Assembly (NCBI GenBank): GCA_963743305.1
Contig: CAVUPH010000032.1
Location: forward strand, 73,890 to 137,889
Source: an uncultured delta proteobacterium
GTDB taxonomy: Bacteria; Desulfobacterota; RBG-13-43-22
Reading direction: 5' to 3'
Length of the DNA: 64,000 nt
Part shown: one piece after another, positions 6,943 to 23,996 of the stretch
Layout: each line of letters opens with the position of its first letter
How positions within the stretch are numbered: the first letter of the stretch is position 1
Program-made: the position numbers and the translations under genes
Notes under the pieces: model-generated
The model's database searches: none
What the model saw: the letters and a program-made list of their open reading frames with translations, nothing else
What the model was told of the DNA's origin: nothing

Positions 6943-6978
6943 GGCTATTCCAGTCCCCAATTATCCGTTTGATCCGGC

Positions 6979-8538: not shown

Positions 8539-9534
8539 CTAGTTTTTACCTAAACCGGGCTTACTTCTCTTCTTTTTATCCTCCCCCCGTGAGAAACCTT
8601 CCCCGGCAGATAGCAGGGTATAATATTTCGCCTCCAGTGGGTTGCCGGTTATGGGGGAATCAGTATCCAGTGAATAAAAAACCGGCCGCTTTCTTATTCC
8701 ATCCTCAATCTGGCTCAGACGTTTCAAGGTAGCCGTTTTGTCCACGAAGGCAATCTCGTGGATTAAAGCCCCCAACAGGGTCAGGATATGGGAAAAAGGA
8801 TCTACAAAAGACAATCCCTCCACATCCACGATGAGGTATTGGTCGGAAAGGGGAATAATCGGCGATTTGGGGGTATCGCTGATCCCAACGACAAAGGCAC
8901 GACACTTTTTGGCGAATTCGATCAACTCGATGGCCTGATTGGCATAGCGGGGGAAAGCGAAGACCACTAGAAGCAGGGAAGAACCATGGAGGGCAATATG
9001 GTCGAAGTTCTCCCAGGAAAGCTGGGTATCCAGACGCACTCCCGGTCGGATCTTTTTCAGGAGAAAGCCAAAATAGGAAGCCAGAACGGAGGAAGCCCGG
9101 TAGCCGGCTACGAGAACGCGTTCACTCCGGAAAATCTTGCGGGCCAGATTTTTAATTTCCTGTTCCGAAATGGAATGAATCATATGTTCCAGATTCCGCA
9201 GGGTGTTTTGATGATAGGCCTTCATGGGAGTCAGATTGTCGGTCCGTTTGGTGGACTTCAACATACGCTCCACACTGGTCAATTCAATATGGAGCAGCCC
9301 CTTAACGTAGACTTCAAATTCCTCATACCCGGAAAATCCGAGATCCAGAACAAAGCGAGTGACGGTAGGTTCGCTCACCCGGCATTCCCTAGCGATTTCT
9401 TTGGCTTTGATCAAAAAAAGCTTTTTATAATCGTTGATGATGAAATCCGCGATCCGTTTCTTCTTAGGCGACAGTCCGGGATAAATATTGATGATGCGAT
9501 CGAAGAGTTCTTTTTTTGCAGAATTGGTTTTCAT
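8539..9534 (-). CDS. RpiR/MurR/HexR-family transcriptional regulator (HTH + SIS)
   Basis: LSPKKKRIADFI, A..C.VSEPTVTRFV..LGFSGY.EF HTH. SIS motifs G.R.S, FPRY, ISDT..SPI. Confidence 0.9.
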   Translation of the reverse strand: MKTNSAKKELFDRIINIYPGLSPKKKRIADFIINDYKKLFLIKAKEIARECRVSEPTVTRFVLDLGFSGYEEFEVYVKGLLHIELTSVERMLKSTKRTDNLTPMKAYHQNTLRNLEHMIHSISEQEIKNLARKIFRSERVLVAGYRASSVLASYFGFLLKKIRPGVRLDTQLSWENFDHIALHGSSLLLVVFAFPRYANQAIELIEFAKKCRAFVVGISDTPKSPIIPLSDQYLIVDVEGLSFVDPFSHILTLLGALIHEIAFVDKTATLKRLSQIEDGIRKRPVFYSLDTDSPITGNPLEAKYYTLLSAGEGFSRGEDKKKRSKPGLGKN

Positions 9535-9554
9535 CAAAGATTCGGGGAAAAGGG

Positions 9555-10172
9555 TTAGTGGTCCCGACCCACCAAGGTGGCCAGAGCTTCCTCGGCGGCT
9601 GCCTTCGCGGCCTGAATGTTGGAGAGGGTTCCGGATAGATAGACCCGTCCGCTGGCTCCGAAGACGCTGGCATGAACCAGTTTGATATCCGCCGCCTTCT
9701 CCGCCTCATTGGCCGCGAATCCGGCATAGCCGGCCGGCACGACTTCAAGGATATACAGGGCGTCATCGGCCAAAATCATGTTGGCGTCCCGAAACCGGTT
9801 GACGATGGGGGTCATGAAAGGGTCGATCCGATCGATGGTTTCGGCCGCCAGTATCTTGGGCTTCAACCGGTCGGTCTCCTTCATTCCCAGATAATTCAAA
9901 ACCACCTCCCCGGCTTCCCGGACATCGGCCGGAGAATCTCCGTGGACTTCCAGCATGCCATAGGTCCGTTCCACCACCATGGCCCCCGGTCGAACCTTGG
10001 CCTTTTTAAGCACCACATCTGTCAGGGAATTGATCTCGATCCCCGGGGCAATTTCCAGAAAAAGACCCGATTGACCGGCGACCGGGTAGTAGCCTCGCGC
10101 CGTGCTGCTGATGTAACCGACGAATTGCTTCTGCAGTTGATCAATAAAGGCAAAGGCTCGCAGTTCAATCAT
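9555..10172 (-). CDS. BMC-T(dp) double-stacking trimeric shell protein (CcmP/CsoS1D type)
   Basis: ELRAFAFIDQLQ, ARGYYP, EIAPGIEIN, VVER.YG.LEVH, PAGYA..AANEAEKAA, FGASGRVYLSG. Confidence 0.9.
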   Translation of the reverse strand: MIELRAFAFIDQLQKQFVGYISSTARGYYPVAGQSGLFLEIAPGIEINSLTDVVLKKAKVRPGAMVVERTYGMLEVHGDSPADVREAGEVVLNYLGMKETDRLKPKILAAETIDRIDPFMTPIVNRFRDANMILADDALYILEVVPAGYAGFAANEAEKAADIKLVHASVFGASGRVYLSGTLSNIQAAKAAAEEALATLVGRDH

Positions 10173-10182
10173 GGGAGCTCCT

Positions 10183-11388
10183 CTAGATGCTCTTTAACCA
10201 TTCCCGCTTATTCGGGCAGATGGCCGTGTTGATGGTGCAAGTGGCGTTTCCCTGGCAGGTACAGACGTGGTCGCCCCCCCGACTGAAGCGGCTGTAACAG
10301 AAATCGCTGATCGGCTGCGCTACCCGGCAGTCCATGATCAAATCGGCGATCAGGCGGCCGATGGCCGGGGCCAGGCCAAAACCATGGCCGCTGAACCCCG
10401 CACAAAAAACAAATCCGGGGACTTCGCCGGTAAAACCGAGGATGGGGATACCATCCGACACTTGATCGATCAGCCCGGACCACACGCGAATGACCTGGAC
10501 GTTTTTCAGGATCGGGAAATAATCCAGGACCTGGCGGGAAATGGCCGGGCCGATGAAGTTGAACAGGGGCTTCCCGTCGCGGTAGATAAAATTCTCCGTT
10601 CCCACAAATCCCCCCCAGAAAAACGGTCCGTGAACGGTCTGGCGCCCGTAAAACAGCCCCCGGGCATGACCGATCATCTGCGGGAACAGCGGCGGGTAGG
10701 GTTCGGTAATCAAGGCCTCGGAAAACACCGGTTTCATGGGATAATCCAACCCCACCAGATTGGCGATCTTCCGACCCCCGATCCCGGCGGCATTGACGAC
10801 CAGGTCCGTGTCGAAGACCTGTTTATCCGTTATAATTCGGGCGACCTTTCCCTTTTTCAACTTGAGGTCCACCACTTGCTCTTGGGTAAAGAATCGCGCC
10901 CCCAATCGCTTGGCTTTCAGAAAAAATCCGTAGGTCACCCGGAAGGGGTTGGCATGCCCGTCCGTCGGGCAATAACTGGCGCCAATCACTTTTTCCCCCA
11001 CGTGGGGATTGATGTCCAGGACTTGTTGTCGATCGAGCATCTCCAGCTCCAGGCCGGTCGTTCGTTGATTCTCCACTGACTTCCGCATCGTAGCCAGATC
11101 TTCCTCGGTGGTGCAGAGGCGCAGGTTTCCCTGGCGGACATATTCCACATCCATTTCCAGTTCTTCGTGAAGCTGGCCGTAGAGGCGGATGCTTTCCAGG
11201 GCCAGGGGCATCTCTTTGAGATTACGGGCCGACTGCCGGACTCCGCCGCCATTGCTGCCCGAGGCCTCGCCCCCGATATCTCCCTTTTCGATGACCACGG
11301 GTTTGAGTCCCTCTTTGGCCAGATAGTAGGCCACGGCACATCCCATGACCCCTCCTCCCACAATCACTACATCGGCCGTATTCGCCAT
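10183..11388 (-). CDS. FAD-dependent amine/imino-acid oxidoreductase (DAO family; sarcosine oxidase beta / HcnC / OoxB-like)
   Basis: DVVIVGGGVMG, EASGSNGGGVRQ, DGHANP, DGIPILG, GFSGHGFGLAP. Cys-rich C-terminal tail. Confidence 0.88.
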   Translation of the reverse strand: MANTADVVIVGGGVMGCAVAYYLAKEGLKPVVIEKGDIGGEASGSNGGGVRQSARNLKEMPLALESIRLYGQLHEELEMDVEYVRQGNLRLCTTEEDLATMRKSVENQRTTGLELEMLDRQQVLDINPHVGEKVIGASYCPTDGHANPFRVTYGFFLKAKRLGARFFTQEQVVDLKLKKGKVARIITDKQVFDTDLVVNAAGIGGRKIANLVGLDYPMKPVFSEALITEPYPPLFPQMIGHARGLFYGRQTVHGPFFWGGFVGTENFIYRDGKPLFNFIGPAISRQVLDYFPILKNVQVIRVWSGLIDQVSDGIPILGFTGEVPGFVFCAGFSGHGFGLAPAIGRLIADLIMDCRVAQPISDFCYSRFSRGGDHVCTCQGNATCTINTAICPNKREWLKSI

Positions 11389-11488
11389 AGTCTCTCCTGC
11401 CCTTGACACTCTCAACCCTTACTCATCCCGATCCACCCAGATCGGTCCGTGGCTTCCAAGATCCCTCTCCGATCCCTTTTCCGGTTTC

Positions 11489-12148
11489 TCAGCCGGTGGC
11501 AAAAACCGATAAAGGCAAGGGCCGGACCGGGGCCCGGGCGGTCATCGGCTCCAGTTCCGCCGGCGACCGGCCCAGTTCCTGGGCCAGGATCTGGGTGACC
11601 AACCGCTCACAGGTCTGTCCCTGGCACAACCCCATGCCGGCCCGGGTAATGCGTTTAATCCCGCTGACCGTTTGCATCCCGTTGCGGATGGCCTCCTTGA
11701 TCTGGCCTCGAGTGATCTCCTCGCAGCGGCAAATCACCAAGTCGTCGTCAGCCGGGGCGGTCCCCGGGGCCTCCGGTTTCAGGCCCGATGCCCGGCCCTT
11801 CAGGGCTTTAAACCGCTCGACGACCCGATCGACGATCCGTTCCAATTCTTCATCCTCGGAAACCGGGGGTGGAGCCGCAACGCCCACCCCAGTTCCAGCC
11901 TCGGCCGTCTCGGTTGCCGGACCGGTTTCACCCCGAGACGTTTCTCGGCCGGGTTTCGATTCCGACGTCGTGGGAAAGGCGTCCGGCGGCGTCTCCGCTT
12001 CGGGACGGTAAACCACCTCGATCCCCTGCTCCTGGATTAGATCCTGGGCCGCGGCCGATATCCGGGCCCCCTCCCTTACGGCTAAGGTTTTATGCCCCTC
12101 CCGGACCAGGTCTTCGATATCTCGAGAAAAAATAAATTCAGGTCCCAT
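11489..12148 (-). CDS. BFD-like [2Fe-2S] subunit fused to a BMC-associated N-terminal domain and an encapsulation peptide
   Basis: C-terminal ICRCEEIT...KR.TRAGMG.CQG..C...R.PVRP. Internal helix EELERIVDRVVERF between Pro/Ala/Glu linkers. Confidence 0.82.
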   Translation of the reverse strand: MGPEFIFSRDIEDLVREGHKTLAVREGARISAAAQDLIQEQGIEVVYRPEAETPPDAFPTTSESKPGRETSRGETGPATETAEAGTGVGVAAPPPVSEDEELERIVDRVVERFKALKGRASGLKPEAPGTAPADDDLVICRCEEITRGQIKEAIRNGMQTVSGIKRITRAGMGLCQGQTCERLVTQILAQELGRSPAELEPMTARAPVRPLPLSVFATG

Positions 12149-12158
12149 GCGGGCGCCC

Positions 12159-12777
12159 TTATTCTTTCCGACCGGTTAGACCGTTTAAGGTTTCCACCAC
12201 TTTAGCGGCGGCCGCCAAAATTTCCGATTCGGTCCCGGCCAGATAGAGCCGACCGGCGGCCCCGAAAAAACTCAGGTCCACCAGGCGGACGTTACAGTGT
12301 TTTTCCGCTTCGTTGGCGGCAATCGAGGAATAAGCCGCCGGGGTAACTTCCAGCAGATAGACGTCGTTGCCCCCTAAGATGAGCATGCCCCGACTGTTCC
12401 GGTTGATGATGACGGCCTGATAGGGATCGATCTTGTTGACAATACTGGTCGCCAGAATCTTCGGGGTCAGCCGGTCTTCTGGCTTCAGACCGATTTCATT
12501 AAGGATCATCTGCCCGGCATGGAGGATCTCTTCTTGATCGAAGGAATGGATTTCCAGCATGCCGTATCTTCTTTCCACGATCATCTCTCCCGGGCGGGCA
12601 CTGGTCACCTTGAGGGCTATATCGGTCAACCGGTTGATTTCAATACCCGGCACGACCTCCACAAAGAGGGAAGACATGCCCTCCACCGGAAGAAATCCCC
12701 GGCAGCGACAGGCGAAATAGAGAGGCGAATTGAGGCTGAAGCCGATCAAGATGGCAGTAAGCACGTAGTTCCGGCAT
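12159..12777 (-). CDS. Second BMC-T(dp) shell protein (+1 frameshift near 12720)
   Basis: MPELRAYCHLDRLQPQFAS joined to YFACRCRGFLPVEG..VEVVPGIEIN...AANEAEK...FFGAAGRLYLAG. Paralog of 9555-10172. Confidence 0.85.
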
Positions 12778-12789
12778 GGGTGGATCTCC

Positions 12790-13411
12790 TTAGCTGTTAA
12801 TCCTGTTTTCTTGAATGAAGTCTTTGGTGATACGACGGAAGGTCTCGGACAACTCCTGGGTCTGGCAAAAGACTACCCCCAAGCCCTCCAATTTTTTTAA
12901 CAAGCGTTCCATTTCCGTTTTGAGGGCCTCGTTGGCCAGGACCTCGCAGACCATAAATCCGTCCCTGGCGGCGAGAACCCGCTTGCCTTGCAGCAGGGCC
13001 GAAAAAACCAGGTCGGGAGTCCGGATCATCGGCCATCAGATGAGCCACTTTGGAGGCCACCATCAGGCATAAAGTGGGTAGCACGAGCACATCGGCGCGG
13101 GCCAATACCTTCTCCAGCCCCTCGGGTTTGACCGTATCCAGGATGCACGGCGCCCCTCCCTGCTCACGGACATCGGCCCCACAGACCCGAGAACGCACTG
13201 CGGGAACCGTATACACCCCGGACCAGCCGGCCTGGGCTTCCAAGAGCGGCAATTGTTTCAGCGCCTCTTCCAGCCGCCGAATCCCGGCTTGGAAAACAAT
13301 CAGCGCCCGGGGTCCCGGAGGGGCCGAAGAACGGACCCGCGGCCTCCCTTGTTCGCCCGATTCCAGCAGGACTTCCGCCACCAGTTTCCGAATCTCTTCT
13401 TTCGAGATCAT
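12790..13411 (-). CDS. BMC-associated flavoprotein-like protein (PF02441-like) with encapsulation peptide (+1 frameshift near 13017)
   Basis: MISKEEIRKLVAEVLLES helix; DVLVLPTL....SKVA...AD joined to LV..ALLQGK.VLAARDG. Confidence 0.65.
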
Positions 13412-13433
13412 GGTGTGAAAAACGTCTCCCTCA

Positions 13434-14282
13434 TCACGAGGCCTGTGCCCAGGCAACGGATTGGCCTTTCTCTCCTAGACAGGAAAGGGCGATCCCGTAG
13501 GGCGTTACGACCTGGGGGACTTGAGGTTTAAAGACCTCCAGACCGAGATTCTGGGCGACCAATTCCGTTAAGCCACCCAACTCGCAGGTTCCCCCCACCA
13601 AACAAACCCTGGGGATGCCCTCGAACCCTTCCAAGGCTTTTCGAATAATGGCCGAAACCTTTTCAATCACCGGACGAACAACGGGGAGGATCTCCGGATG
13701 ACGGGAAGGGTCGATTTTGATCCTTTCGGCTTCCTCAAAGCTGATCCGCAGGTGACCGGACAGGACCAGGGAAAGATGAACCCCTCCGGTGGCTTCATCA
13801 CTGGTCCGGATAATCCGGCCGTCTCGAATCAGGGCTATCCCCGTGGTTCCCCCGCCGATATCCACCAGGGCCCCATCTTGGAGGTTGAGAAAACGGTTGG
13901 CCGCCGTGGGTTCGTCCAGGACCCGGACAACTTCCAACCCGGCTCCCTGCAGGATATAGCGGGTGGTATGCACATTGCCGGATTCCGTCTGCGGGGGAAA
14001 GGAGGTAGCCCCCTGATCGATGGGCAGCGAAGAGCGGCTTCGGATTTCTTCCATTATCGCCTTCAACAGGGTGAGGGTCCCGAAGTAATCAATAATCAGA
14101 CCGCTGCCTATTCCTTCGGAGCGCCGCATAGCCGCCGCCCTGGGCCGTCCCTGTTCATCCACTACAATCACCTTACTCTTGTAGGTTCCCAGGTCCACCC
14201 CGGCAAACAATTCCCGGGCCCCGGAGAAATCCCAAGTTTCCGGCCGATTCATGATCCGACGAATGGTCTTGAGGGCTGTCAT
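13434..14282 (-). CDS. eutJ: EutJ-family actin/Hsp70-like ATPase
   Basis: GVDLGT, TSFPP.T, VLDEPTAAN, VDIGGGTTGI, DEATGG.H, LVGGTC, TP.GIA. Confidence 0.9.
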   Translation of the reverse strand: MTALKTIRRIMNRPETWDFSGARELFAGVDLGTYKSKVIVVDEQGRPRAAAMRRSEGIGSGLIIDYFGTLTLLKAIMEEIRSRSSLPIDQGATSFPPQTESGNVHTTRYILQGAGLEVVRVLDEPTAANRFLNLQDGALVDIGGGTTGIALIRDGRIIRTSDEATGGVHLSLVLSGHLRISFEEAERIKIDPSRHPEILPVVRPVIEKVSAIIRKALEGFEGIPRVCLVGGTCELGGLTELVAQNLGLEVFKPQVPQVVTPYGIALSCLGEKGQSVAWAQAS

Positions 14283-14834
14283 CAGATTAAATTGGGATAA
14301 AGCTCCCGACTCAGGGAAGGGATCACCACATGGCTTTGAATCAACCCTTCATCGGTCAGGGCCGCTAAACCGGCGTCTACCGCCGCCTGGACGGAACCGA
14401 CATCTCCGGTTAAGGAAACATAGGATTTTCCGGCCAGACCCGTGGCACAGCGGATCTCGATAATCTCCACCGCCGCCGCCTTAACTGCCGCATCGGCCGC
14501 CAGGATGCAGGAGGACGCCGAATAGGTTTCAATGATCCCCAGGGCGCCAATGTTCAGGATCTGGGTGGCGCAACTGAGGGCCGGAAAAATACTCGGGTGG
14601 ACATTGGGGATCGTAAAGGAGTCGACCAGAAACTCCCCGGCGATTTCCCGGCCCACGTCCACCGCAGTTCTGCACCGAACCGACGTCGCCGGCGATCAGG
14701 GCCAAATAGCGCCCGGGGCAGACCGGCCGGGCCATGATCAGCTCGACGCTGGCCGCTTTGATCATCTCATCGGCGCAGTGGACCCCTTTGGCCACGCTGT
14801 TCAGTTCGATCAGCCCAATCGCTTTGTATGCCAT
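14282..14834 (-). CDS. pduT: PduT-like tandem BMC-T shell protein with Fe-S-ligating Cys (+1 frameshift near 14667)
   Basis: AIGLIELNSVAKG...AD.MIKAA, PVCPGRY, GDVGSV. Second domain ALGIIET.S....I.AAD.AVKAA.V...EIR...GL.GK. Confidence 0.85.
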
Positions 14835-14838
14835 GACC

Positions 14839-16185
14839 CTACCTCTTCTCCCGTTGGATAACGACCTGCCCGTCCACCGAAACCACCCGACCGGCCAGAC
14901 TGGCATGGATCCGGGCACCCAGGGCCTTCTCCGGTATCTCTCCCAGCAGATCCCCCTGGTTGACCCGATCACCGGCTTGGACGACGGGCCGGGCCGGCGC
15001 CCCTAAATGCTGTTTCAAGGGGATGGCCACCCGATCCGCCCGGATTTCCCGGGAATCGAAACGGGGATGACGGTCGTATTTCTTGATTTGAAGACGTTCC
15101 ATCAGCCGCTGCGTCGGGATCCTTCTCCCCTCGCGAAAGGCCGAGGGCCGGTAGTCCTCCCGAACGGTAGGCCGCTTCACCCCTTGGGCCAGCAGTTCCC
15201 GTTTGATCTGGGCGTTGACCTCCCGCGGGGAGATCATCATGGGGCAGGCGTATTTTTCGCAGACCCCGCATTCCGAACAGATCAGGGCGTCTTTTTGGAT
15301 CTCTTGAGCCGCCGGGGAGGTGGACCCCAGTTGCCGCATGATTTTATGGGGGTTCAGGGAATGTCCCAGCAAATAGCGAGGGCACATGTCGGTGCAGCGG
15401 GAGCATTGGCAGCAGGCCAAACGGGTAATATTCCGTAGACGGGCCGGATCCTTGATCTTATCCACGACCACCGGATGATCCGGAGCCAGGACTAAAAGGC
15501 CGCTGGTGGTCTTGCCGACCGGCGTCGCCAGATCCGAGACCACCTGGCCCATCATGGGCCCTCCCAGAACGACCCGAAATTCCCCGAGCACGGGCCCCCC
15601 CCGCCAACCCGATCACCTCTCCGACCGACAGGCCGATGGGGACCTTCAGGATCAGAGGTTCCGCCACCTCTCCCCCGACGGTTAGATACCTTTCGAGTAA
15701 CCGGGCGGCCTTCCTCCACGGCTTGGTCGATATTCAGGAGGGTTTCCACGTTGCTGACCACGGCCCCCACCTGCAGGGGCAGACCCCCCTTCCGGGACCA
15801 CCCGCCCCATGACCTCGTACACCAGGACCTGCTCATCCCCGGCCGGGTAGAAATCCGCCAGTTCAAAAAGATCGATCTTTTTGTAAGGCCCCCGCCCGAC
15901 CTTATCCCGCAGGACGGCCAGGGCCTTTTGATGTTTTCCCTTTAGACACAGGGTTCCTTGAGGGGCCCCGGTGCATTCCATGACCCGCAGGAGACCCCGG
16001 AGGATCCGATCGGCTTCCTGCTCCAGCAGATAGGGATCACTCATCAGCAGCGGTTCGCAGGAAGCCCCGTTGGCCAGGACCCGCTCCACCCTGGCCTTCA
16101 ATTTGACGTGGGTCGGGAAGCCGGCCCCCCCGGCCCCGACCACCCCGGCTTCCTGCACCCGGCTGATGATCTCCTGGCTCGTCAT
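14839..16185 (-). CDS. pduS: PduS/RnfC-like FMN + 2x[4Fe-4S] oxidoreductase (three +1 frameshifts near 15595, 15690, 15787)
   Basis: AGVVGAGGAGFPTHVKL, NGASCEPLL, YPAGDEQ, VSNVET, GGPMMG, CCQCSRCTDMCP, CSECGVCEKYACP, PLKQHLGAPA, GARIHAS. Directly upstream of pduT. Confidence 0.85.
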
Positions 16186-16198
16186 CACGCTGCTTTTC

Positions 16199-16474
16199 CT
16201 AAGTTCCGCTCAGATCCAAGCTGTCCACAATCCCCACCACCACCGCGTCCACGGGGATTAATTTCTCCTGGTCGAAGGCCTGCATGGCCGGACTGCCCTG
16301 GGTGATGATGACCAGTTCTCCCACCCCCGCTCCGATTTCATCGGCCGCCACCAGGACGTCGCCGGCCGGGGTCAATTTCTTGCCCAACGGCTGGACAAAG
16401 AGCAGCCGCAACGCGTGGATCTTTTCATTTTTTTTGGTCGACCAGACGTTCCCCATCACCTTGGCAATTTTCAT
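16199..16474 (-). CDS. BMC-P pentameric vertex protein (EutN/CcmL)
   Basis: MKIAKVMGNVWSTKK, VAADEIGAGVGELV, GSPA, PVDAVVVGIVD. Confidence 0.93.
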   Translation of the reverse strand: MKIAKVMGNVWSTKKNEKIHALRLLFVQPLGKKLTPAGDVLVAADEIGAGVGELVIITQGSPAMQAFDQEKLIPVDAVVVGIVDSLDLSGT

Positions 16475-16560
16475 GGTATCTTTCCCGAGACCCGCTTAGG
16501 CCGGTCTAGCCGTTAGATTCTCTCTTAGGTGTCCGTGATGCCGAAGCCAGGCCCCACCGA

Positions 16561-16866
16561 TCATCCCAGTCCTTCCCGGGCCTGAATGGCCTCCAGGCTG
16601 GTTTTGACCGCCGCAATATCCCCGAAGATCCCGATCATGGTCAAGTGCTGGGGACAGCTTCCTTTGAGGTCAAAGACATGAACGGCAGCGGCCTTTTCGG
16701 CAATGTCCGCGGCCGCCACCATATCCACCAACCGCCCTTGAACCAATCCCACGGCGCTGAAGTTGATGATCTCCAGCGTCTTCTTGCCGGTGGAACCCAT
16801 CCGGGTCATTAAGATATCGATGACCCCCGGTCCGGGGTGGGTAATGAACTGAATATTCAGCGCCAT
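16561..16866 (-). CDS. GrpU-like divergent BMC-H shell protein with GxCPQ Fe-S motif
   Basis: AVGLVQG, AADIAEKAA, GSCPQH, IFGDIAAV. Confidence 0.82.
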   Translation of the reverse strand: MALNIQFITHPGPGVIDILMTRMGSTGKKTLEIINFSAVGLVQGRLVDMVAAADIAEKAAAVHVFDLKGSCPQHLTMIGIFGDIAAVKTSLEAIQAREGLG

Positions 16867-17001
16867 CCTCTTTTCCTTATGGGTCCAGCCGGGCTGGTCC
16901 CCTTACCAAAACGAATCCGGCCTCTCCGCCCGCGGGGATCGATTTTTTGTTCTGGCCGGGGGACTGGTCCCGACCCCGCGGTCAACCGGACCCGGAACGA
17001 T

Positions 17002-17283
17002 TTATTTTTCGGCCTTGGGGAGAATGAACTCGATATCCCCGTGGGGTCTGGGGATAACGTGGACCGACAGGAGCTCGCCCACCCTTTTGGCCGCCGCCCC
17101 GCCGGCATCGGTAGCGGCTTTGACCGCGCCCACATCCCCCCGGACAAAAATCGTCACCAAACCGCCGCCGGCATGCTCTTTTCCCACCATCTTGACGTTG
17201 GCCGCTTTCACCATGGCATCGGCCGCCTCAATGGCACCGACCAATCCCCGGGTTTCCACCATACCTAATGCTTGTTCACCCAT
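17002..17283 (-). CDS. BMC-H hexameric shell protein (PduA/EutM-like)
   Basis: [26 protein letters not shown]...GDVGAVKAA...HVIPRPH. Confidence 0.96.
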
Positions 17284-17308
17284 GTTTTTTTCCTCCTACA
17301 GTTTGTTT

Positions 17309-17812
17309 TTATCGTTTCAATCGAATCGCCCTGGCCTTCATGGACCAGGCACGAGGTACTTCAATGGTTACCACGGCGGTTTGATCCATCCGCTCCGTCT
17401 TACGGACCGCGGTGGCCGGAGCCTCTCCTAAAACGGCCCCGGACCGATCCAAAACCACCACCAGCTCCCCCTTTTCCGGGAGCGGCAGAAACTCATGGGG
17501 CAGGGTCACCGCCGCCTTATCATCCGGCAGGCTTTCATCGACGATGAAAATGGCCTGACCCGGACAAATGGGCACGCAGGACTGACAGCCAATGCATTTA
17601 TCTTCATCCAGGTGCGGGAGGTTGGTAATATCCCTCCCCACCGAGATGGCTTCGACCCGGCAACTGGCCTCGCAGGGGTTGCAGGGAATATGTTCGGTGC
17701 ACTCGATCACGGCCACCGGCCCCCGCCGCCGCCGGGCTTCGGTAGGGATACCGGGACTGTCCCTTAATTCTTCTTCCGATAGAAAGCCTGTTTGCGATAA
17801 TCCTGGGGCCAT
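17309..17812 (-). CDS. 2x[4Fe-4S] ferredoxin subunit of a multi-subunit flavin amine/proline-type dehydrogenase
   Basis: CTEHIPCNPCEASC and CIGCQSCVPICPGQAI. C-terminal P.EFLPLP..G..V...DR.G domain. Confidence 0.85.
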   Translation of the reverse strand: MAPGLSQTGFLSEEELRDSPGIPTEARRRRGPVAVIECTEHIPCNPCEASCRVEAISVGRDITNLPHLDEDKCIGCQSCVPICPGQAIFIVDESLPDDKAAVTLPHEFLPLPEKGELVVVLDRSGAVLGEAPATAVRKTERMDQTAVVTIEVPRAWSMKARAIRLKR

Positions 17813-17817
17813 CCGTT

Positions 17818-18906
17818 TTACCTTTCCATCAGGGCGTAAAGTTGTTCCTTGTTCTGCCGGCGAGCTTCGCCATAGGGTCCGCTGCGCAAACCGGACATGC
17901 TTTCCAACTGCTCCGCCCGCTGGTGTTCAAAGGCGTCGGTATCCAAGTATCCCAGGCTGTGGGCCGCGGCCAATCCGGCAATGCGCCCCTCAATAATCGC
18001 CGTGCTGGCTTCCTCAATTCCGGAGACATCCCCCGCCACGTAAATCCCCGGAAGGGAAGTTTGCTGGTCGAGATCATGGATCGGCACATTCCCTCCCAAA
18101 GCGGAAAGCGAGGCCATTTTACAGCCGGCCATCCGCAAAAGCTGGGTCATCGGGTTGAGGCCCACGGCAATGCAGATGGTATCCACTTCCAGTTCCTTTT
18201 CCGTTCCGGCAACGGGTTGCCACTTGGAATCGACCTCAACGATCGTAGCCCCGATCACTCGGTCACTCCCCCGGGCCTCCTTGATGGTATGGGACAGGAA
18301 AAAAGGGACCCCGTAGCGGGCCACCTTGGCCGCGTGGACCCCATACCCGGAAATCCGAGGGGCGGCGTCGATGACTGCGGCTATCTGGCATCCGGCTTGA
18401 AGCAGTTGAAAACTGACCACGACCCCCACATTGCCGGAACCCACCATGAGAATGTTGTTCCCCGGCCGAACGCCATGAAGGTTGGCCATGGTCTGGGCCG
18501 CGCCGGCTCCGATTACCCCGGGAAGGGTCCACCCAGGGAAAGGGATCATATTTTCCGAAGCGCCGGTGGCCACCAGAACCCGCTCCGCCTTGACCTCTTC
18601 AATCCGGTCCTGAATCATGACATTCATGGTCCGGTTCTCATAAATCCCCAGGACCACTGCCTTCAGAAGGACTTCCACGCCAAGTTGGCGGGCCTCGTCC
18701 AACAGGCTTTGGCCGATATGAAATCCCCGTTCCTGGGCGCGGTGTTCTTTGGAACCGAAAAACTTATGGATCTGTTTAAAGAGCTGGCCGCCCGGCCGTT
18801 CGTTTTCATCAAAAACCACCACTTCGACCCCGCAGCGGGCCGCCTCGATCGCGGCGGAAAGGCCGGCCGGTCCCGCCCCAATACAAACCAGTTCGCATCG
18901 TCTCAT
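17818..18906 (-). CDS. NAD(P)/FAD-dependent oxidoreductase (HcnB / OoxA / sarcosine oxidase alpha N-terminal-like)
   Basis: IGAGPAGLSAA, GGQLFKQIHKFFGS, ATGASE..PFPGWTLPGV, GSGNVG, GIYVAGD..GIEEA. No GcvT/THF domain. Confidence 0.88.
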   Translation of the reverse strand: MRRCELVCIGAGPAGLSAAIEAARCGVEVVVFDENERPGGQLFKQIHKFFGSKEHRAQERGFHIGQSLLDEARQLGVEVLLKAVVLGIYENRTMNVMIQDRIEEVKAERVLVATGASENMIPFPGWTLPGVIGAGAAQTMANLHGVRPGNNILMVGSGNVGVVVSFQLLQAGCQIAAVIDAAPRISGYGVHAAKVARYGVPFFLSHTIKEARGSDRVIGATIVEVDSKWQPVAGTEKELEVDTICIAVGLNPMTQLLRMAGCKMASLSALGGNVPIHDLDQQTSLPGIYVAGDVSGIEEASTAIIEGRIAGLAAAHSLGYLDTDAFEHQRAEQLESMSGLRSGPYGEARRQNKEQLYALMER

Positions 18907-19226
18907 TTTTTCCCCGCCGGCGGCTCCGGTCCATGGCCGTGCTGCGTTTGGATTGACATACCCGCTTGAAGCGGTTCCACACAGGTCCGCACGTTGGGCC
19001 TTCCATCCACGACCATGATGCAGTCGGTGCATCGGCCAATGGCACAAAACATCCCCCGGGGTTCTTTTCGTTTCGCCGTGTAACGGTGGATGATAACCCC
19101 GTTGCTCCGGAGGGCCATGGCGATGGGTTCCCCCGCGAAACCCTCCATCGGTTGTTGATCAAAGGTAAACCGGACCTTTTCACCCTTTTCAAAAGTCCCC
19201 AGAATGGGATGGTCCTCGATGCGCAT
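18903..19226 (-). CDS. [2Fe-2S] (Fer2_4) subunit, HcnA / sarcosine oxidase alpha N-terminus-like
   Basis: GEPIAMAL...G, PRGMFCAIGRCTDC.M.VDG.PNVRTC. Overlaps the next start (ATGA). Confidence 0.88.
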   Translation of the reverse strand: MRIEDHPILGTFEKGEKVRFTFDQQPMEGFAGEPIAMALRSNGVIIHRYTAKRKEPRGMFCAIGRCTDCIMVVDGRPNVRTCVEPLQAGMSIQTQHGHGPEPPAGKK

Positions 19227-19261
19227 AGGTTTAAACCCGATTAGATGAAAATAATTTTACG

Positions 19262-19370: not shown

Positions 19371-20694
19371 CTAACAAAATCCGAACATTTCCGTAAAAGT
19401 GAAGTTGGTCCCCACCAGGGGTATCCCGGTCATGGCGCAGGCCTCCAGAGTCAGGGAGCGGATGTCTTCCCGTTCCAGATTGGCCAGCTTGGTCTTCCCG
19501 GCGGCCTTGGCCAGGAGAACGGTCTCGTAAGTCATGGCCTGAATATAGTTGGCCACCCGTTGCGCCGCCGCCTCGATGTCCAGGTTCTTTCGCAATTCCG
19601 GGTCCTGGGTTCCGATCCCCCAGGGGCATTTTCCCTCGTGGCAGCGGAGGCAGACCACGCAGCCCATGGCGATCATGGCCCCGGTTCCGATGGCCACGGC
19701 ATCGGCGCCGATGGCCAAGGCCTTGGCTACATCGGCCCCGTCTTTGATCCCGCCGGAGACGATCAGACTCACCTCATCTTTGACGCCCATCTCCTCCAGG
19801 GCCCGGACGGCCTGGACCAGGGCCGGCAGGGTGGGGATCCCCAGGTGTTTGGAAGCCATGACCGGGGCGGCCCCGGTGCCGCCTTCGGAACCGTCGATGA
19901 CGACGCCGTCGGCGCCGGTCTTGACGGCGATCTTGACGTCTTCCTTAACCCGGCCGGCGGCCATCTTGATGAAGATGGGGATCTGATAGTCGGTCACGTC
20001 CCGCAGTTCCTGGATCTTCAAGACCATATCGTCGGCCCCGAAAATATCCCCATGGCGGGGATGACTGTGCAGGTCAATACCTTCCGGCAACTGCCGGAAT
20101 TGCGCAATTTCCTTGGTGATTTTACTGCCCATCAGGTGTCCGGAAAGACCGGGTTTGGCGCCGATGCCGGTGATCAGCTCCAGGGCATCAGCGGCCTCGA
20201 TGTTGGTCAGGGAAAAGCCCATCCGGCTGGGGGTGATCTGCACCACCTGTTTATAGGAATTCGCTCGTTCTTCGGGAAGCAACCCGCCTTCTCCATTGTT
20301 GATCGAGGTCCCCACGATCTGGGTGGACTTGGCCAGAGCGATTTTGGCCTCTTTGCTCAAGGCCCCATAAGACATGCCGGAAATCATGATCGGCGTTTCA
20401 ATGACCAGGGGTTTTTTGGCGAAGCGAGCCCCCAGGACCGTCCGGGTCTGGCAGTCCTCCCGGTAGGTGTCCACCGACAAACGGGAGAGCTGGGCCGCCA
20501 GGATGAGCAGGTCGTCGAAATTGGGATAGCGGGCTGGTGGAACCACATCCCCGTATCCGGTGCTTACCCGTATAGGCCTTGTATTTGACCTCGGCCACCG
20601 TTTCCGCATTCCAGACCCCGCGCTGGACATCCTTGGCCTTGGGCACCTTCCCTTTTTCCTCCTGGTATTGCTTATATTCTTTTTCCTCGGACAT
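19371..20694 (-). CDS. FMN-binding glutamate synthase domain protein (GlxD/MgsC/GltB2-like) (+1 frameshift near 20532)
   Basis: FDDL, MSYGALSKEAK, NGEGG, GAKPG..GHL...KI, DGSEGGTGA, SGGIKDGADVAKALAIGAD, CVVCLRCHEGKCPWGIGTQ [3Fe-4S] motif. Confidence 0.88.
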
Positions 20695-20696: not shown

Positions 20697-21401
20697 CTAC
20701 CTCCCCGGCTGAACCTGAAGATGTTGGGGTTTGAAGAGGTAATATTCGTGGCGGCCCAGGACCTTCGGAACCACACTCCGGAAGTGGTCCACCCCCTGCT
20801 CCAGACCATACTGCTTGAAAAGGCCTTCCAGCGCCTTTTTTTCTTCATCGGAAATGGGGATGATCGAGGCGTTTCCGCCCAGTTTGTCTTCCACCGCGGG
20901 GTCCAGGGTGTGAATGATGCCGTTGTACATGGACTCCCCAATAACCGGCCCCATTTCCCCGAGGACGATGATCCGTCCCCCCAGGGTCATGTATCCGGTC
21001 CACCGGCCCACACTGCCGCAAATGATGAGGTTGCCGCCTTTCATCCCCAGGCCGGCCCGGGTGCCGCTGTTTCCTTTGACCAGGATGGTACCCCCGAGCA
21101 TGGAAGGGCCGCAGTTGCTGCCGGTGTTCATCTCGACGATGATCTCCCCGGCCTTCATGTTGTCACCGGTGTACCAGCCGGTATTCCCCTTGACGTGCAG
21201 GGTCGGACCTTCCAGGAACCCACCGGTGTAGAAACCGGTGCTGCCCTCGACGGTGACGGTGCCTTCCCCTTTTAAGGCTGTAGCGAAATTGTGGACCGAG
21301 TGGGAATTCTTGATAACGATTTCCCGGTCCTGCTTAATGGTTTCCCTCAGTTTTCGGTTTACATCCCAACTGGTCATCCCGGCAATGTCTAAATTGACCA
21401 T
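20697..21401 (-). CDS. GXGXG beta-helix glutamate synthase domain protein (GlxC/MgsB/GltB3-like)
   Basis: Repeated V.G..G...G..M.GG.I.V.G units. Confidence 0.85.
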   Translation of the reverse strand: MVNLDIAGMTSWDVNRKLRETIKQDREIVIKNSHSVHNFATALKGEGTVTVEGSTGFYTGGFLEGPTLHVKGNTGWYTGDNMKAGEIIVEMNTGSNCGPSMLGGTILVKGNSGTRAGLGMKGGNLIICGSVGRWTGYMTLGGRIIVLGEMGPVIGESMYNGIIHTLDPAVEDKLGGNASIIPISDEEKKALEGLFKQYGLEQGVDHFRSVVPKVLGRHEYYLFKPQHLQVQPGR

Positions 21402-22288
21402 ACCTTTACTCCTCCTGGCTCCATCTCGGTGGCATACACATCCGAGACGATCGGGGTTAAGCAGATTTGCTCCGACCCAAATAGTACGGTCCCGTCTTCC
21501 CTTTCAAAGTAGAGCACCGGTTTAAAACCCAACCAATCCCGAAAGGCCCCTATCTGTTTATCCGTGCTGGCCAGGATGGTGAACACCCCGTCAAAGGCCT
21601 CCAGGGCCTGGTGCATGGCCCCTTCCAGGTCCTGTCCTTTTTCTTTCATCTGGTACGCGAGATACTGGGCCGCCAGCTCGGAGTCATTATTGGTCTTGAA
21701 GCGGACCCCCTTATTTTCCAGACTCCGCCGCATCTTGAAATAGTTGGTAAACTGGCCGTTATGGACTATAGCCAATTCCGGATAGAGGTAGGAGATAAAA
21801 GGATGGGCGAAGTTGATGTTTTCCACCGTCTCGGTAGCCAGGCGCACATGCCCGATACCGTGGGTGCAGGTTCCTACGCGGATCTCATGGGTGCGCTGCA
21901 GGTCTTCGGCCGAACCCTGGTCTTTGTAGACCTTCAAGTGTTGGCCCAGGGAGTGCACACATAATTGGGGATGACTGTCTATGTCCCAATGGAGCCGGCC
22001 GATCTGGGAAGGATCCATGTCGATGGATCCTTCATAAAAGCTGAAGATCCCCTCGCCATGGTAGCTGCGGGCCTTACGGACTTTGCCGAACATGGCGATG
22101 ATCTCCTCCAGCTCCCGCTCGTAACAGGGGTCGGTCAGGGAGGCTCGGATCTGGATGTCTTCCCGTTGCTCATACAGCGCCACCCCCGTCGCGTCCCGGC
22201 CGCGGTGCTCCAATTCCTTGAGCATATTGACCAGGTCCTGGGCCAGGGTGGGAGAATTTCTCCCGATTATTCCTGCTATCCCGCACAT
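21389..22288 (-). CDS. Class II (Ntn) glutamine amidotransferase (GlxB/MgsA/GltB1-like)
   Basis: MCGIAG with Cys nucleophile, HRG.DA.G, GIGHVRLATE, AHPF, VHNGQFTNY, DSE, RD.LG.KP. Confidence 0.88.
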   Translation of the reverse strand: MCGIAGIIGRNSPTLAQDLVNMLKELEHRGRDATGVALYEQREDIQIRASLTDPCYERELEEIIAMFGKVRKARSYHGEGIFSFYEGSIDMDPSQIGRLHWDIDSHPQLCVHSLGQHLKVYKDQGSAEDLQRTHEIRVGTCTHGIGHVRLATETVENINFAHPFISYLYPELAIVHNGQFTNYFKMRRSLENKGVRFKTNNDSELAAQYLAYQMKEKGQDLEGAMHQALEAFDGVFTILASTDKQIGAFRDWLGFKPVLYFEREDGTVLFGSEQICLTPIVSDVYATEMEPGGVKVWSI

Positions 22289-23793: not shown

Positions 23794-23996
23794 GCGAAAA
23801 ATTACTTCAACGGCTTTATTTATTTTTATTTCATAATTTTTAGTAAAATTAGTCTCTTAGAAATAATGACCGCTGCCTGAAGTCTTTCTTCGCAAAAAAA
23901 TGTTGATTTATTTCATTATCTTTAAATAATGTTACGAGGGTTTTCGTCCCAATTGTTTTCCGACCCTCTTGAAACCGCAGGCCGGGGGTGAAAAAA

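Follow-up and report, generated by a model that had tools for sequence, protein, structure and literature searches.

Five genes of a probable flavin/Fe-S dehydrogenase are divided by shell genes in a MIC6-type microcompartment locus

Results

Profile searches with Pfam and NCBIfam placed the five genes of a split dehydrogenase on the minus strand of the window, the whole 64,000-nucleotide stretch of DNA analysed here. All coordinates below refer to this strand unless noted otherwise. Three of the genes precede the shell genes. The first (18903..19226) encodes a gamma-like 2Fe-2S subunit (Fer2_4, PF13510, 97.6 bits) with the motif C-x4-C-x2-C-x12-C, which matches the gamma subunit as described in the text excerpts of PMC4575208. 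The second (Pyr_redox_2, 17818..18906, Pfam 129.6 bits) encodes the FAD/nucleotide-binding subunit and corresponds to the N-terminal part of the alpha subunit; the reading frame as called spans 17818-19047, but translation probably begins at the ATG at 18906. This protein scored 148 bits against the NCBIfam model soxA (TIGR01372, model residues 167-496), and its PDB matches were SoxA residues 130-446 and 1y56_A. The third gene (17309..17812, Fer4 families of Pfam) encodes a 2x[4Fe-4S] ferredoxin subunit, in which eight cysteines are invariant among 20 sequences. All three proteins are as long as their homologues from loci without shell genes.

The downstream half comprises two genes enclosed by a pair of CcmP-like BMC-T genes. 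One of them (11489..12148, PF04324 and PF17806) encodes a BFD [2Fe-2S]/SO_alpha_A3 protein, the C-terminal part of the alpha subunit, for which 1y56_A residues 410-491 were the sole match in a PDB search. The other (10183..11415, probably starting at the ATG at 11388) encodes the DAO-family catalytic beta subunit (PF01266, 253 bits). Its top PDB match was 1y56_B with 182.6 bits, compared to 116 for SoxB, and with NCBIfam it scored 154 bits against the glycine oxidase ThiO. Microcompartment-specific additions are confined to these two proteins and are missing from a natural deletion variant (L090). The BFD/A3 protein carries an extension of about 130 aa, consisting of a conserved N-domain, a linker and an amphipathic helix, which is absent from the 88-108 aa homologues without shell genes. 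The DAO protein ends in a Cys-rich tail, C-x-C-x5-C-x6-CPNKREWLKSI, that is shared by every one of the 27 distinct microcompartment-type loci and is absent elsewhere. The Cys motifs of the subunits are consistent with the family descriptions in the excerpts of PMC4575208.

In the window, the two halves lie 5161 nt apart. The stretch between them holds genes for a BMC-H shell protein (17002..17283; PF00936, 99 bits), a divergent BMC-H protein (16561..16866; PF00936, 33.7 bits), a BMC-P vertex protein (16199..16474; PF03319, 100.7 bits), a PduS-like flavin/Fe-S protein (14839..16188; Complex1_51K, SLBB, Fer4 and RnfC_N in this order), a PduT-type tandem BMC-T protein (14282..14972; two BMC domains in two frames), an EutJ-family chaperone-like ATPase (13434..14282; NF011660, 287 bits, above the cut-off of 182) and a microcompartment accessory protein that is flavoprotein(PF02441)-like and has an amphipathic helix at its N-terminus (12797..13456). 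The divergent BMC-H protein carries GSCPQ, which we take to be a GrpU-type motif. It is probably of the GrpU type, a label taken from the MIC6 description in the excerpts of PMC8217296. The flavoprotein-like protein of the window gave no Pfam or NCBIfam match; its intact homologue (L089:11544-12332) reached an Atlas feature score of 0.92 and TM values of 0.60-0.66 to PF02441 clusters. The two CcmP-like BMC-T(dp) copies (12159..12764 and 9555..10172) scored 216 and 234 bits with NF053796, below its cut-off of 340. The next gene encodes an RpiR-family regulator (HTH_6 and SIS by Pfam, 8539..9537), which keeps the same position in related loci; it has no role in the pathway proposed below and was counted against it. 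This gene placement confirms the preliminary description, in which the dehydrogenase genes were divided by shell genes. In 23 of the 24 related loci that have both halves, shell genes occupy a gap of 5.1-7.2 kb, so the split arrangement is not a matter of chance.

Five one-base insertions, probably assembly errors, interrupt the PduS-like, PduT-like and flavoprotein-like genes of the window. The PduS-like gene lies in three frames. Compared to two related loci (L002, L093), it has insertions near 15783, 15696 and 15590, at each of which public contigs have one letter fewer, and the gene is intact in relatives (439-446 aa). One inserted base near 14666 splits the PduT-type gene, which is a single ORF in relatives; in runs X1 and X5, one letter is missing at 14665/14667. 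A frameshift near 13014-13019 in the flavoprotein-like gene was recognized as an indel by comparison with relatives and public contigs.

Gene contiguity, fusions and PDB matches support the assignment of all five products to a single dehydrogenase of the HcnABC/opine dehydrogenase/proline dehydrogenase type. In a shell-free locus (L044), the genes follow each other unbroken in the order Fer2_4, Pyr_redox_2, ferredoxin, BFD/A3 and DAO, with a similar order in L045, and L090, the deletion variant, likewise has all five side by side. Some relatives encode single proteins that join Pyr_redox_2 with BFD/A3 (L046, 470 aa; L126, 484 aa) or with the ferredoxin (L092, 530 aa), and L126 also carries a fusion of DAO and ferredoxin (574 aa). 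In L057 and L058, the SoxA-like proteins combine Fer2_4, Pyr_redox_2 and A3 in one chain. The alpha subunit is present in two pieces (Pyr_redox_2 and BFD/A3), DAO is the beta and Fer2_4 the gamma subunit, and the ferredoxin is an addition. As judged by sequence similarity, the archaeal L-proline dehydrogenase PDH1 (1Y56) is the nearest relative of known structure.

The absence of a folate-binding domain, also part of the earlier description, was borne out by PF01571 and tblastn searches. Pfam detected no GcvT domain in the window, and the single PF01571 match of the whole 4.9-Mb genome lies on a different contig. A tblastn search of 140 loci and the window, in which the GcvT regions from two canonical alpha subunits served as queries, gave zero matches in the window and in all microcompartment-type loci. 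GcvT is present in canonical N-methylglutamate-type operons of the same phylum.

Upstream of the dehydrogenase genes lies a GS-like ligase gene (22354..23694; Gln-synt_C, 342 bits), a candidate for a gamma-glutamyl-amine synthetase. The protein scored below the cut-offs of every NCBIfam model, including TIGR03105 (GS type III), GlnA and GGputSyn, the last of which was among its better matches (265 bits, cut-off 650). It is followed by an MgsA-like class-II amidotransferase with an N-terminal Cys (21389..22288; GATase_6 and GATase_7, starting with MCGIAG), an MgsB-like GXGXG protein (20697..21401; PF01493, 79 bits) and an MgsC-like FMN/Fe-S glutamate-synthase domain protein (19371..20630; PF01645, 357 bits). 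The MgsC-like protein is 41-52% identical to MgsC of canonical operons with a GcvT-bearing alpha subunit, whereas its identity to the phylum sample's GltB-like genes of about 500 aa does not exceed 44%. The Cys motif does not discriminate between an Mgs-like trio and a split glutamate synthase, and canonical MgsC has the same motif. Further GS and Glu_synthase genes are located elsewhere in the genome, on contig C10. On the plus strand, a class-I glutamine amidotransferase-like protein (23988..24707; PF00117, 72 bits) is a possible gamma-glutamyl-amide hydrolase; homologues adjoin the system in L008, L053, L055, L061 and L078.

The locus belongs to the catalogued MIC6 microcompartment type, which we detected at 12 loci in genomes and at dozens in metagenomes. 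Gene order is kept in all 12 genome loci as far as the contigs extend. Among 80 metagenome loci retrieved via MgsC, Fer2_4 follows MgsC in 45 of 58, BMC-H comes after the ferredoxin in 42 of 44, and of the 50 with enough upstream DNA, 45 have the GS gene ahead of the Mgs-like trio; in L089, the GS and Mgs genes are situated among the shell genes. The GS-like and MgsABC-like genes are integral to the dehydrogenase system and in nearly all cases are found immediately upstream of it. In a quick DAO tree, the proteins linked to the GS/Mgs set form one clade, in which the microcompartment-type proteins and L090 group together (support 98), with L092 as sister (98) and then the L126-type proteins (90). 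Canonical MgdA-like and other DAO proteins are placed apart. A second microcompartment variant (L060 from G399, L125, L140) carries the shell, an aldehyde dehydrogenase and MgsABC, and no dehydrogenase within the stretch examined; the top DAO match in G399 is 30% identical. Literature searches turned up no published functional assignment for this locus type.

Two acylating aldehyde dehydrogenases (6979..8433 and 5515..6960) passed the NF011927 cut-off of 403 with 502 and 506 bits. The N-terminus of the first, KERLEQIVSRVIRRLE, resembles an encapsulation-peptide helix; like the window, L002, L006, L010, L011, L078 and L089 have two copies. A RidA-family imine/enamine deaminase (2164..2607; PF01042, 88.8 bits) is also encoded; of 10 loci that extend 1.6 kb or more past the aldehyde dehydrogenase, 9 have this gene downstream of it. 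The shell-free operon L092 encodes a permease, GS, MgsABC and the dehydrogenase, followed by a fusion of RidA and aldehyde:ferredoxin oxidoreductase, and in L126, L128 and L136 an aldehyde:ferredoxin oxidoreductase likewise comes after the dehydrogenase. Because the shell-free sister operons end in this enzyme, once fused to RidA, the genomic context, together with the two aldehyde dehydrogenases and RidA, supports the earlier suggestion that the product is a free aldehyde. The source of the aldehyde need not be this dehydrogenase in every locus, as shown by L078, where no dehydrogenase gene lies between GS, MgsABC and the aldehyde dehydrogenases.

Discussion

On balance, we favour the view that the products of the five genes make up a single flavin/Fe-S dehydrogenase of the archaeal proline dehydrogenase, opine dehydrogenase and HcnABC kind, acting in a glutamate-tagged amine pathway within MIC6. 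In such a pathway, the GS-like enzyme would use ATP to join a primary amine to glutamate, and the MgsABC-like trio would then form an N-substituted glutamate. The dehydrogenase within the shell would oxidise this compound to an imine, whose hydrolysis, possibly helped by RidA, would yield glutamate and the free aldehyde, and the encapsulated acylating aldehyde dehydrogenases would convert the latter to acyl-CoA. The aldehyde is probably released from the glutamate-tagged amine inside the microcompartment, with the whole complex probably brought in via the BFD/A3 extension and the Cys-rich DAO tail. Electrons from the flavins and, via the PduS-like protein, from the NADH of the aldehyde dehydrogenases probably exit through the PduT-type and GrpU-type Fe-S shell proteins, and this would stand in for the missing alcohol dehydrogenase. 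Among the observations that count against this proposal, solved GmaS structures match the GS-like ligase no better than ordinary GS, and the nearest solved relative of DAO is proline dehydrogenase instead of an N-alkylglutamate dehydrogenase. A phosphotransacylase of family PF06130 was not found in the 90%-complete genome, which leaves the CoA recycling step without explanation. The proposal would give a pathway to MIC6, a microcompartment type catalogued without function.

PDH1 is the best solved match of both DAO and BFD/A3, and its alpha subunit likewise consists of Pyr_redox_2 and a BFD/A3-like C-terminus without GcvT. In contrast, the alpha subunit of the window is spread over three genes, the enzyme has gained a 2x[4Fe-4S] ferredoxin and microcompartment-specific extensions, and the GS-like and Mgs-like genomic partners suggest another substrate. 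PDH2 is reportedly, from work of Kawakami and colleagues in 2004, an alpha-beta-gamma-delta form of proline dehydrogenase. Opine dehydrogenase, D-hydroxyproline dehydrogenase and HCN synthase are flavin-containing alpha4 beta4 gamma4 enzymes according to the excerpts of PMC4575208. They share the three subunit kinds, the two 2Fe-2S motifs and the lack of a folate domain, and act on secondary amines, including the N-substituted glutamate in nopaline. However, these are described there as aerobic, soluble enzymes of Proteobacteria and, unlike the window system, without a ferredoxin subunit, shell or GS/Mgs link. The N-methylglutamate pathway (GmaS, MgsABC, MgdABCD) likewise has a ligase, a three-part GltB-like synthase and a SoxAB-related dehydrogenase, and its canonical loci in the same phylum sample (L057, L058) account for the MgsC identity given above. 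The window dehydrogenase, however, falls into a separate clade with 28-31% identity to MgdA-like proteins, and with GcvT absent the C unit cannot pass to tetrahydrofolate. Neither SoxD-like nor SoxG-like genes turned up in the scanned ORFs. The amine may be other than methylamine. TRAP transporters, whose usual cargo is organic acids, adjoin eight related loci, and in the window there are genes for an APC permease, a Liv-type ABC system and an Amidohydro_3 protein; these genes thus give no indication of a simple volatile alkylamine.

We regard it as rather improbable that a free primary amine or amino acid is oxidised directly to the imine, as by glycine oxidase or proline dehydrogenase. RidA would then yield aldehyde and ammonia, and the GS-like ligase together with a split GltB-like trio, acting as a dedicated GS-GOGAT, would recapture the ammonia and may also accept electrons via Fer2_4, Pyr_redox_2 and the ferredoxin. 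The best family scores of DAO (ThiO and PDH1 beta), the conservation of RidA and the presence of all three GltB domains plus the Fe-S Cys motif in the trio are consistent with this. Pyr_redox_2 and the 2x[4Fe-4S] protein, fused in L092, also resemble GltD in composition, and together with Fer2_4 their genes adjoin the trio outside the shell block. On the other hand, the 148 bits of Pyr_redox_2 on soxA compare to at most 55 bits on GltD-type models, and its fusions to BFD/A3 (L046, L126) tie it to the dehydrogenase. Likewise, the MgsC-like protein is nearer to canonical MgsC than to the GltB-like genes, and separate GS and Glu_synthase genes exist on contig C10.

It is unlikely that BFD/A3 and DAO alone are inside the shell, with Fer2_4, Pyr_redox_2 and ferredoxin outside and electrons crossing the Fe-S shell proteins. 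Such a division would agree with the gene order, with extensions on only these two subunits and with the two kinds of Fe-S shell proteins in the excerpted MIC6 description, but fusions connect all pieces of the enzyme. In EutBC and PduCDE, one tagged subunit carries the complex into the shell, and a single tag suffices. Within the family, FMN is present only in the assembled alpha-beta-gamma enzyme (excerpts of PMC4575208). The earlier idea that the split order mirrors a luminal and an outer part is not supported, as Pyr_redox_2 and BFD/A3 are also split in the shell-free L044, L045 and L092. Given these splits, the L046 and L126 fusions and the contiguous genes of L090, one assembled complex is the simpler reading.

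Quite improbable is a Puu-like route in which the dehydrogenase turns the free distal amino group of a gamma-glutamylated diamine or amino compound into the aldehyde, as with PuuB, before an aldehyde dehydrogenase acts and the class-I amidotransferase-like protein, as a hydrolase, removes the tag: the necessary set of GS-like ligase, DAO-family oxidoreductase, aldehyde dehydrogenase and GATase1 or Peptidase_C26 protein is complete and GGputSyn is among the better GS matches, but its score is far below the cut-off, GATase1 occurs in some loci only, and the Mgs-like trio, the most conserved part of the system, would be left without a role between ligase and dehydrogenase.

The glutamate-tagged amine pathway that we prefer can be set beside known microcompartments. 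The MIC6 catalogue (Sutter et al. 2021, PMC8217296, supplementary file 4) lists three loci, with no function given in its excerpts, compared to the 12 genome loci, dozens of metagenome loci and proposed pathway here. Its excerpted description does not mention Fer2_4, Pyr_redox_2, ferredoxin or GS/Mgs-like genes, and agrees with our loci in the anaerobic deltaproteobacterial hosts, the N-terminal helix on the aldehyde dehydrogenase, the pfam04324 2Fe-2S protein and a pfam01266 oxidoreductase with a C-terminal 4xCys extension of about 30 aa. Unlike Eut, Pdu and GRM metabolosomes, the window locus has no phosphotransacylase or alcohol dehydrogenase, and its signature enzyme is a flavin/Fe-S amine dehydrogenase instead of a B12 or glycyl-radical lyase. 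As in these metabolosomes, the shell would confine an aldehyde on its way to acyl-CoA, the conversion being catalysed by an encapsulated acylating aldehyde dehydrogenase, and the accessory proteins EutJ, PduS-like and PduT-like are encoded in the window locus.

Gene layout and assembly state of the locus

The whole locus lies on the minus strand of the window. It starts, in transcription order, with a GS-like ligase (23694-22354), followed by a trio consisting of a class-II amidotransferase (22288-21389), a GXGXG protein (21401-20697) and a Glu_synthase FMN-domain protein (20630-19371). Three pieces of the dehydrogenase come after the trio, namely Fer2_4 (19226-18903), Pyr_redox_2 (18906-17818) and a 2x[4Fe-4S] ferredoxin (17812-17309). 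The shell block that follows the ferredoxin carries, in this order, BMC-H, a divergent BMC-H, BMC-P, a PduS-like protein, a tandem BMC-T, EutJ, a flavoprotein-like protein and a CcmP-like BMC-T. Behind this first CcmP-like BMC-T, the BFD/SO_alpha_A3 protein (BFD/A3; 12148-11489) and DAO (11415-10183), the catalytic beta subunit, are encoded. A second CcmP-like BMC-T, an RpiR regulator and two acylating aldehyde dehydrogenases come next, and a permease, a C45 hydrolase and RidA lie farther downstream. The preliminary description had placed a five-piece amine dehydrogenase around the shell genes, and its coordinates and domain calls proved to be correct for all pieces. The G+C content of window positions 60001-64000 is 0.71-0.72, compared to 0.48-0.65 elsewhere in the window.

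Compared with the related loci L002 and L093, the window carries single inserted bases near 15783, 15696 and 15590 (PduS-like), 14666 (tandem BMC-T) and 13019 (flavoprotein-like), two of these five within G runs. The insertions fall at 13014-13019, 14665-14667, 15589-15590, 15695-15697 and 15782-15784. Contigs from four public runs each lack one letter, at 13014, 14665/14667, 15590, 15695 and 15782/15784, and one 182-nt public contig otherwise differs by one letter only. Because the public short-read contigs lack these bases, the five insertions are most likely assembly errors. We therefore rejected the PduS-like, PduT-like and flavoprotein-like genes as pseudogenes, given that the contigs without the inserted bases are near-identical; the accessory genes, the PduT-type one included, are probably intact. 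All five dehydrogenase genes are intact in the assembly.

Scanning species-representative genomes with DAO gave 12 loci (63-89% identical), all from Desulfobacterota-type MAGs; their gene order agrees up to the contig ends. The related loci come from records labelled Desulfobacterales, Desulfatiglandales or Thermodesulfobacteriota. A metagenome scan with the MgsC-like protein was used in addition, and the best 80 of 130 relatives (at least 66% identical) were kept. Among these best 80 of 130, Fer2_4 is located immediately after MgsC in 45 of the 58 loci that reach 1.5 kb or more downstream. The GS-like gene is found upstream in 45 of the 50 loci with enough room, and BMC-H comes after the ferredoxin in 42 of 44. 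The two halves of the dehydrogenase are separated by 5.1-7.2 kb of shell genes in all but one of the 24 loci containing both. The order is shuffled in the related locus L089, which has its Mgs genes and ligase interspersed with shell genes.

The five pieces as one putative enzyme

Judging from their domains, motifs and relatives, the five pieces, which sum to 1265 residues, probably form one enzyme. The best solved relative of DAO is chain B of 1Y56, the proline dehydrogenase PDH1 of Pyrococcus horikoshii (182.6 bits), compared to 116 bits for SoxB and 119 bits for glycine oxidase. The sole solved match of BFD/A3 is the C-terminus of chain A of the same structure (residues 410-491), and Pyr_redox_2 matches SoxA residues 130-446 as well as 1Y56 chain A. 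As in the family of proline, opine and D-hydroxyproline dehydrogenases (PDH, opine-DH, D-HypDH) and HcnABC, a DAO-family beta subunit is combined with a Pyr_redox_2-type alpha subunit, and both carry N-terminal ADP-binding motifs (VGGGVMG in DAO, GAGPAG in Pyr_redox_2). Holoenzymes of this family contain two FAD and one FMN at the alpha/beta interface and carry out dye-linked oxidation of secondary amines or imino acids. In the part of the literature source considered here, the family 2Fe-2S motifs are C-x4-C-x2-C-x11-12-C in gamma and C-x-C-x15-20-C-x4-C in alpha (PMC4575208). Both recur in the window, as C-x4-C-x2-C-x12-C in Fer2_4 and as C-x-C-x32-C-x4-C in BFD/A3, the latter with a spacer that is longer than the x15-20 of the family. 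A longer Cys spacer is typical of BFD domains. The eight ferredoxin Cys residues are invariant across 20 sequences.

DAO proteins that are at least 67% identical occur in five of the 401 genomes of the phylum sample, the genome of the window counted, and the next best match is 36% identical. In shell-free loci of weaker DAO paralogues, the dehydrogenase pieces are contiguous. The order in L044 is Fer2_4, Pyr_redox_2, ferredoxin, short BFD/A3 and DAO, and L045 is similar; L046 carries Fer2_4, a 470-aa fusion of Pyr_redox_2 with BFD/A3, and DAO. Fusions are also found in two metagenome relatives, with DAO joined to 2x[4Fe-4S] and Pyr_redox_2 joined to BFD/A3 in L126, and Pyr_redox_2 joined to the ferredoxin in L092. 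When DAO, Pyr_redox_2 and the ferredoxin were modelled together, a score of 0.86 was obtained for the ferredoxin as partner; a control with DAO swapped for an unrelated protein reached 0.85, and the score is given no weight here.

The GS-like ligase and the Mgs-like trio

In the N-methylglutamate pathway, a GmaS-type ligase is encoded in one operon with MgsA (GATase_2), MgsB (GXGXG) and MgsC (Glu_synthase). The domain set and order in the window match this operon, with the ligase scoring under every model cut-off. Against solved structures, the ligase reached 222 and 219.5 bits with GmaS and 241 bits with ordinary GS; as the solved GmaS structures score below ordinary GS, identity as GmaS is not assignable. 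The Cys motif of MgsC does not tell GOGAT from N-methylglutamate synthase, since it occurs in both kinds of enzyme, and it was dropped for this purpose. Other GS and Glu_synthase genes are present elsewhere in the genome of the window, and the copies at the locus are therefore specialised.

Absence of a folate-binding domain

The claim of the preliminary description that the locus lacks a GcvT-like domain was borne out, as no match to PF01571 (GCV_T) was found in the window. Across the 4.9-Mb, 90%-complete genome a single match was found, on a different contig. The alpha subunit of heterotetrameric sarcosine oxidase and MgdABCD carries GCV_T and GCV_T_C; the enzyme of the window has neither, and its BFD/A3 protein stops right after the A3 domain. 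These known enzymes also have the small subunits SoxD (delta) and SoxG (gamma), whereas a scan of the region 5515-23694, covering 24 ORFs of 70 aa or more, gave no member of either family.

Two genomes of the phylum sample, G110 and G392, carry canonical operons with MgsABC-like genes, DAO, a GS-like gene and a SoxA-like alpha subunit of 997-1028 aa that contains Fer2_4, Pyr_redox_2, A3, GCV_T and GCV_T_C. Compared with the window, their MgsC proteins are 41-52% identical, but their DAO proteins only 29-31%. In tblastn searches with the GcvT parts of both alpha subunits, matches were confined to these operons, a single DAO-GcvT fusion and the GcvT of the genome itself; there were none in the window, the microcompartment-type loci or the sister loci. 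With MgsC near, DAO far and GcvT absent, the comparison indicates that the system of the window couples an Mgs-like front end to a different, folate-domain-free dehydrogenase.

Features confined to the microcompartment-type loci

DAO of the window ends with the C-terminal tail HVCTCQGNATCTINTAICPNKREWLKSI. This tail, C-x-C-x5-C-x6-CPNKREWLKSI, was observed in all 27 distinct microcompartment-type loci that contain the DAO 3′ end (32 rows, five of which were the same DNA fetched twice). It carries four Cys in 25 of them and three in L004 and L005, and it is absent from every shell-free homologue compared.

BFD/A3 of the microcompartment-type loci has an extra N-terminal part of about 130 residues, and its homologues without shell genes are 88-108 residues long. 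Three elements make up the extension: a conserved domain about 45 residues long, a linker of low complexity and an amphipathic helix (EDEELERIVDRVVERFKAL in the window) that resembles the N-termini of both aldehyde dehydrogenases and of the flavoprotein-like protein. In its layout, the extension may recall the two-part N-terminal shell-cargo linker of EutQ (PMC12487888). The related locus L053 encodes at 4299-4874 a 191-aa Nitro_FeMo-Co protein (PF02579) whose N-terminal part shares ~30% identity with residues 1-100 of the BFD/A3 extension. This similarity suggests that the extension could be a portable module. In the microcompartment-type loci, no additions were found in Fer2_4, Pyr_redox_2 or the ferredoxin.

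A natural deletion derivative is found in L090 (1-5962), where the shell block between BMC-H and the BFD domain is gone. An N-terminal remnant of BMC-H is fused in frame to the BFD domain, DAO lacks the Cys tail, and the five dehydrogenase genes are contiguous and followed by the 57-residue rest of the second BMC-T.

Descent and aldehyde-converting neighbours

We calculated a quick maximum-likelihood DAO tree from 52 sequences fetched for this analysis, excluding re-fetched duplicates, L013, L017, L037, L059, hits below 330 residues and L008, which contains a stop. The microcompartment-type loci and L090 form a clade (SH-aLRT 98) with L092 as sister (98) and the L126 group next (90); canonical MgdA-like and other DAO proteins are placed elsewhere. 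It thus appears that the dehydrogenase and the GS/Mgs set share their descent and that the shell was gained within this lineage. The shell-free L092, the encapsulated form and the secondary deletion in L090 provide a natural series for experimental comparison.

The genes beside the dehydrogenase suggest that its product would be an aldehyde: in the window, two acylating aldehyde dehydrogenases are encoded, both above the NF011927 cut-off. The complete shell-free operon of L092 (5374-16778) comprises an APC permease, the GS-like gene, MgsABC-like genes, Fer2_4, Pyr_redox_2-ferredoxin, a short BFD/A3 and a tail-less DAO. It ends with a single 703-aa ORF in which RidA is fused to an aldehyde:ferredoxin oxidoreductase. 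An aldehyde:ferredoxin oxidoreductase also follows the dehydrogenase in L126 (3661-21154), L128 and L136, which are mutually close and therefore not independent cases. These three loci adjoin genes for S-(hydroxymethyl)glutathione dehydrogenase, i.e. glutathione-dependent formaldehyde dehydrogenase (717 bits, cut-off 544), and S-formylglutathione hydrolase (417 bits, cut-off 282), both exceeding their equivalog cut-offs. Ten loci extend 1.6 kb or more past the acylating aldehyde dehydrogenase, and nine of them, all except L089, encode RidA downstream of it. No phosphotransacylase was found in the 90%-complete genome.

Relation to the MIC6 microcompartment

In the portion of the published catalogue considered here, MIC6 is described by a pfam01266 oxidoreductase with a C-terminal extension of ~30 aa carrying four Cys, and by a pfam04324 [2Fe-2S] protein (PMC8217296). 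Every item of this portion fits the locus of the window: PF04324 matches the BFD/A3 protein (11489-12148) with 55.1 bits, the shell proteins are present, with the tandem BMC-T split here by one inserted base, and both aldehyde dehydrogenases score above the NF011927 cut-off and carry N-terminal amphipathic helices by eye. The same portion of the description names no substrate, nor the other three dehydrogenase genes, nor the upstream genes (PMC8217296). Searching the full-text literature, we found no functional assignment of MIC6 and no relevant paper linking microcompartments to N-methylglutamate or sarcosine oxidase. The divergent BMC-H, which gave a weak PF00936 match and carries a GSCPQ motif, is probably of the GrpU type.

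In MIC6, as in many other microcompartment types, an aldehyde dehydrogenase is present and no enzyme is known that would supply the aldehyde. If the assignment made here is true, a glutamate-tag-fed flavin/Fe-S amine dehydrogenase would be a new class of signature enzyme for metabolosomes, and electron export would be the reason for two Fe-S shell proteins alongside the PduS-like protein. It would also imply a folate-independent anaerobic counterpart of the N-methylglutamate pathway, and sulfate reducers living in sediments, wetlands and groundwater would break down amines by a route that has gone unrecognised.

The PduS-like protein has the permuted order Complex1_51K, SLBB, Fer4_17 and C-terminal RnfC_N (window 14839-16188; L060:628-1947; L093:3955-5295), which is kept in intact relatives of 439-446 aa. 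RnfC, PrdC and PduS begin with the barrel-sandwich domain. The flavoprotein-like protein (window 12797-13456; L089:11544-12332) has no family match; in the ESM Atlas it resembles PF02441 flavoproteins (feature score 0.92, TM 0.60-0.66), and it is probably an ‘eut_hyp’-like microcompartment flavoprotein. An RpiR/SIS regulator (window 8539-9537) is located between the second BMC-T and the aldehyde dehydrogenase in every related locus reaching there. The usual ligands of SIS domains are phosphosugars, at odds with a simple amine as inducer.

Possible substrates

TRAP genes (DctP/Q/M) adjoin the system in eight loci (L004, L006, L008, L010, L051, L053, L078 and L089). In their place, the window and L003 carry an Amidohydro_3 gene with a Liv-type ABC transporter, and the window also encodes an APC permease and a C45 hydrolase. 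The solute-binding protein of the L053 TRAP system was considered as a substrate clue; its best solved match is a lactate-binding protein (97 bits), which gives no pointer.

MIC6 might be an organelle that confines formaldehyde, a reading we regard as rather unlikely. Methylamine would be oxidised in sulfate-reducing Desulfobacterota by a folate-independent, anaerobic version of the N-methylglutamate pathway, formaldehyde would be freed within the shell and trapped as formyl-CoA, and the electrons would leave via Fe-S shell pores. The relationship of the trio to MgsC of canonical N-methylglutamate operons hints at this reading, as does the position of L126, L128 and L136 beside the two genes of glutathione-dependent formaldehyde oxidation. 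On the other hand, the TRAP, APC and Liv-type transporters and the amidohydrolases near the loci suggest a larger, acid-bearing amine. A further hint at formaldehyde comes from corrinoid methyltransferase genes beside the trio in a sister microcompartment variant, found in L060 (G399:C39:7000-26900), L125 and L140 and also in L137 and L139. 

The second variant encodes shell proteins, an aldehyde dehydrogenase, Peptidase_C26 and MgsABC-like proteins (MgsC 79% identical), followed by a B12-binding (corrinoid) protein, a URO-D-type methyltransferase, a PIG-L deacetylase and an MtrA-like protein. The five-piece dehydrogenase was not found in the second-variant DNA examined, and the best DAO match in its genome G399 is 30% identical. 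L078 likewise carries the ligase, the trio and the aldehyde dehydrogenases and lacks the dehydrogenase. Since both the second variant and L078 have the trio without the dehydrogenase, the trio, and not only the dehydrogenase, may be central to the system.
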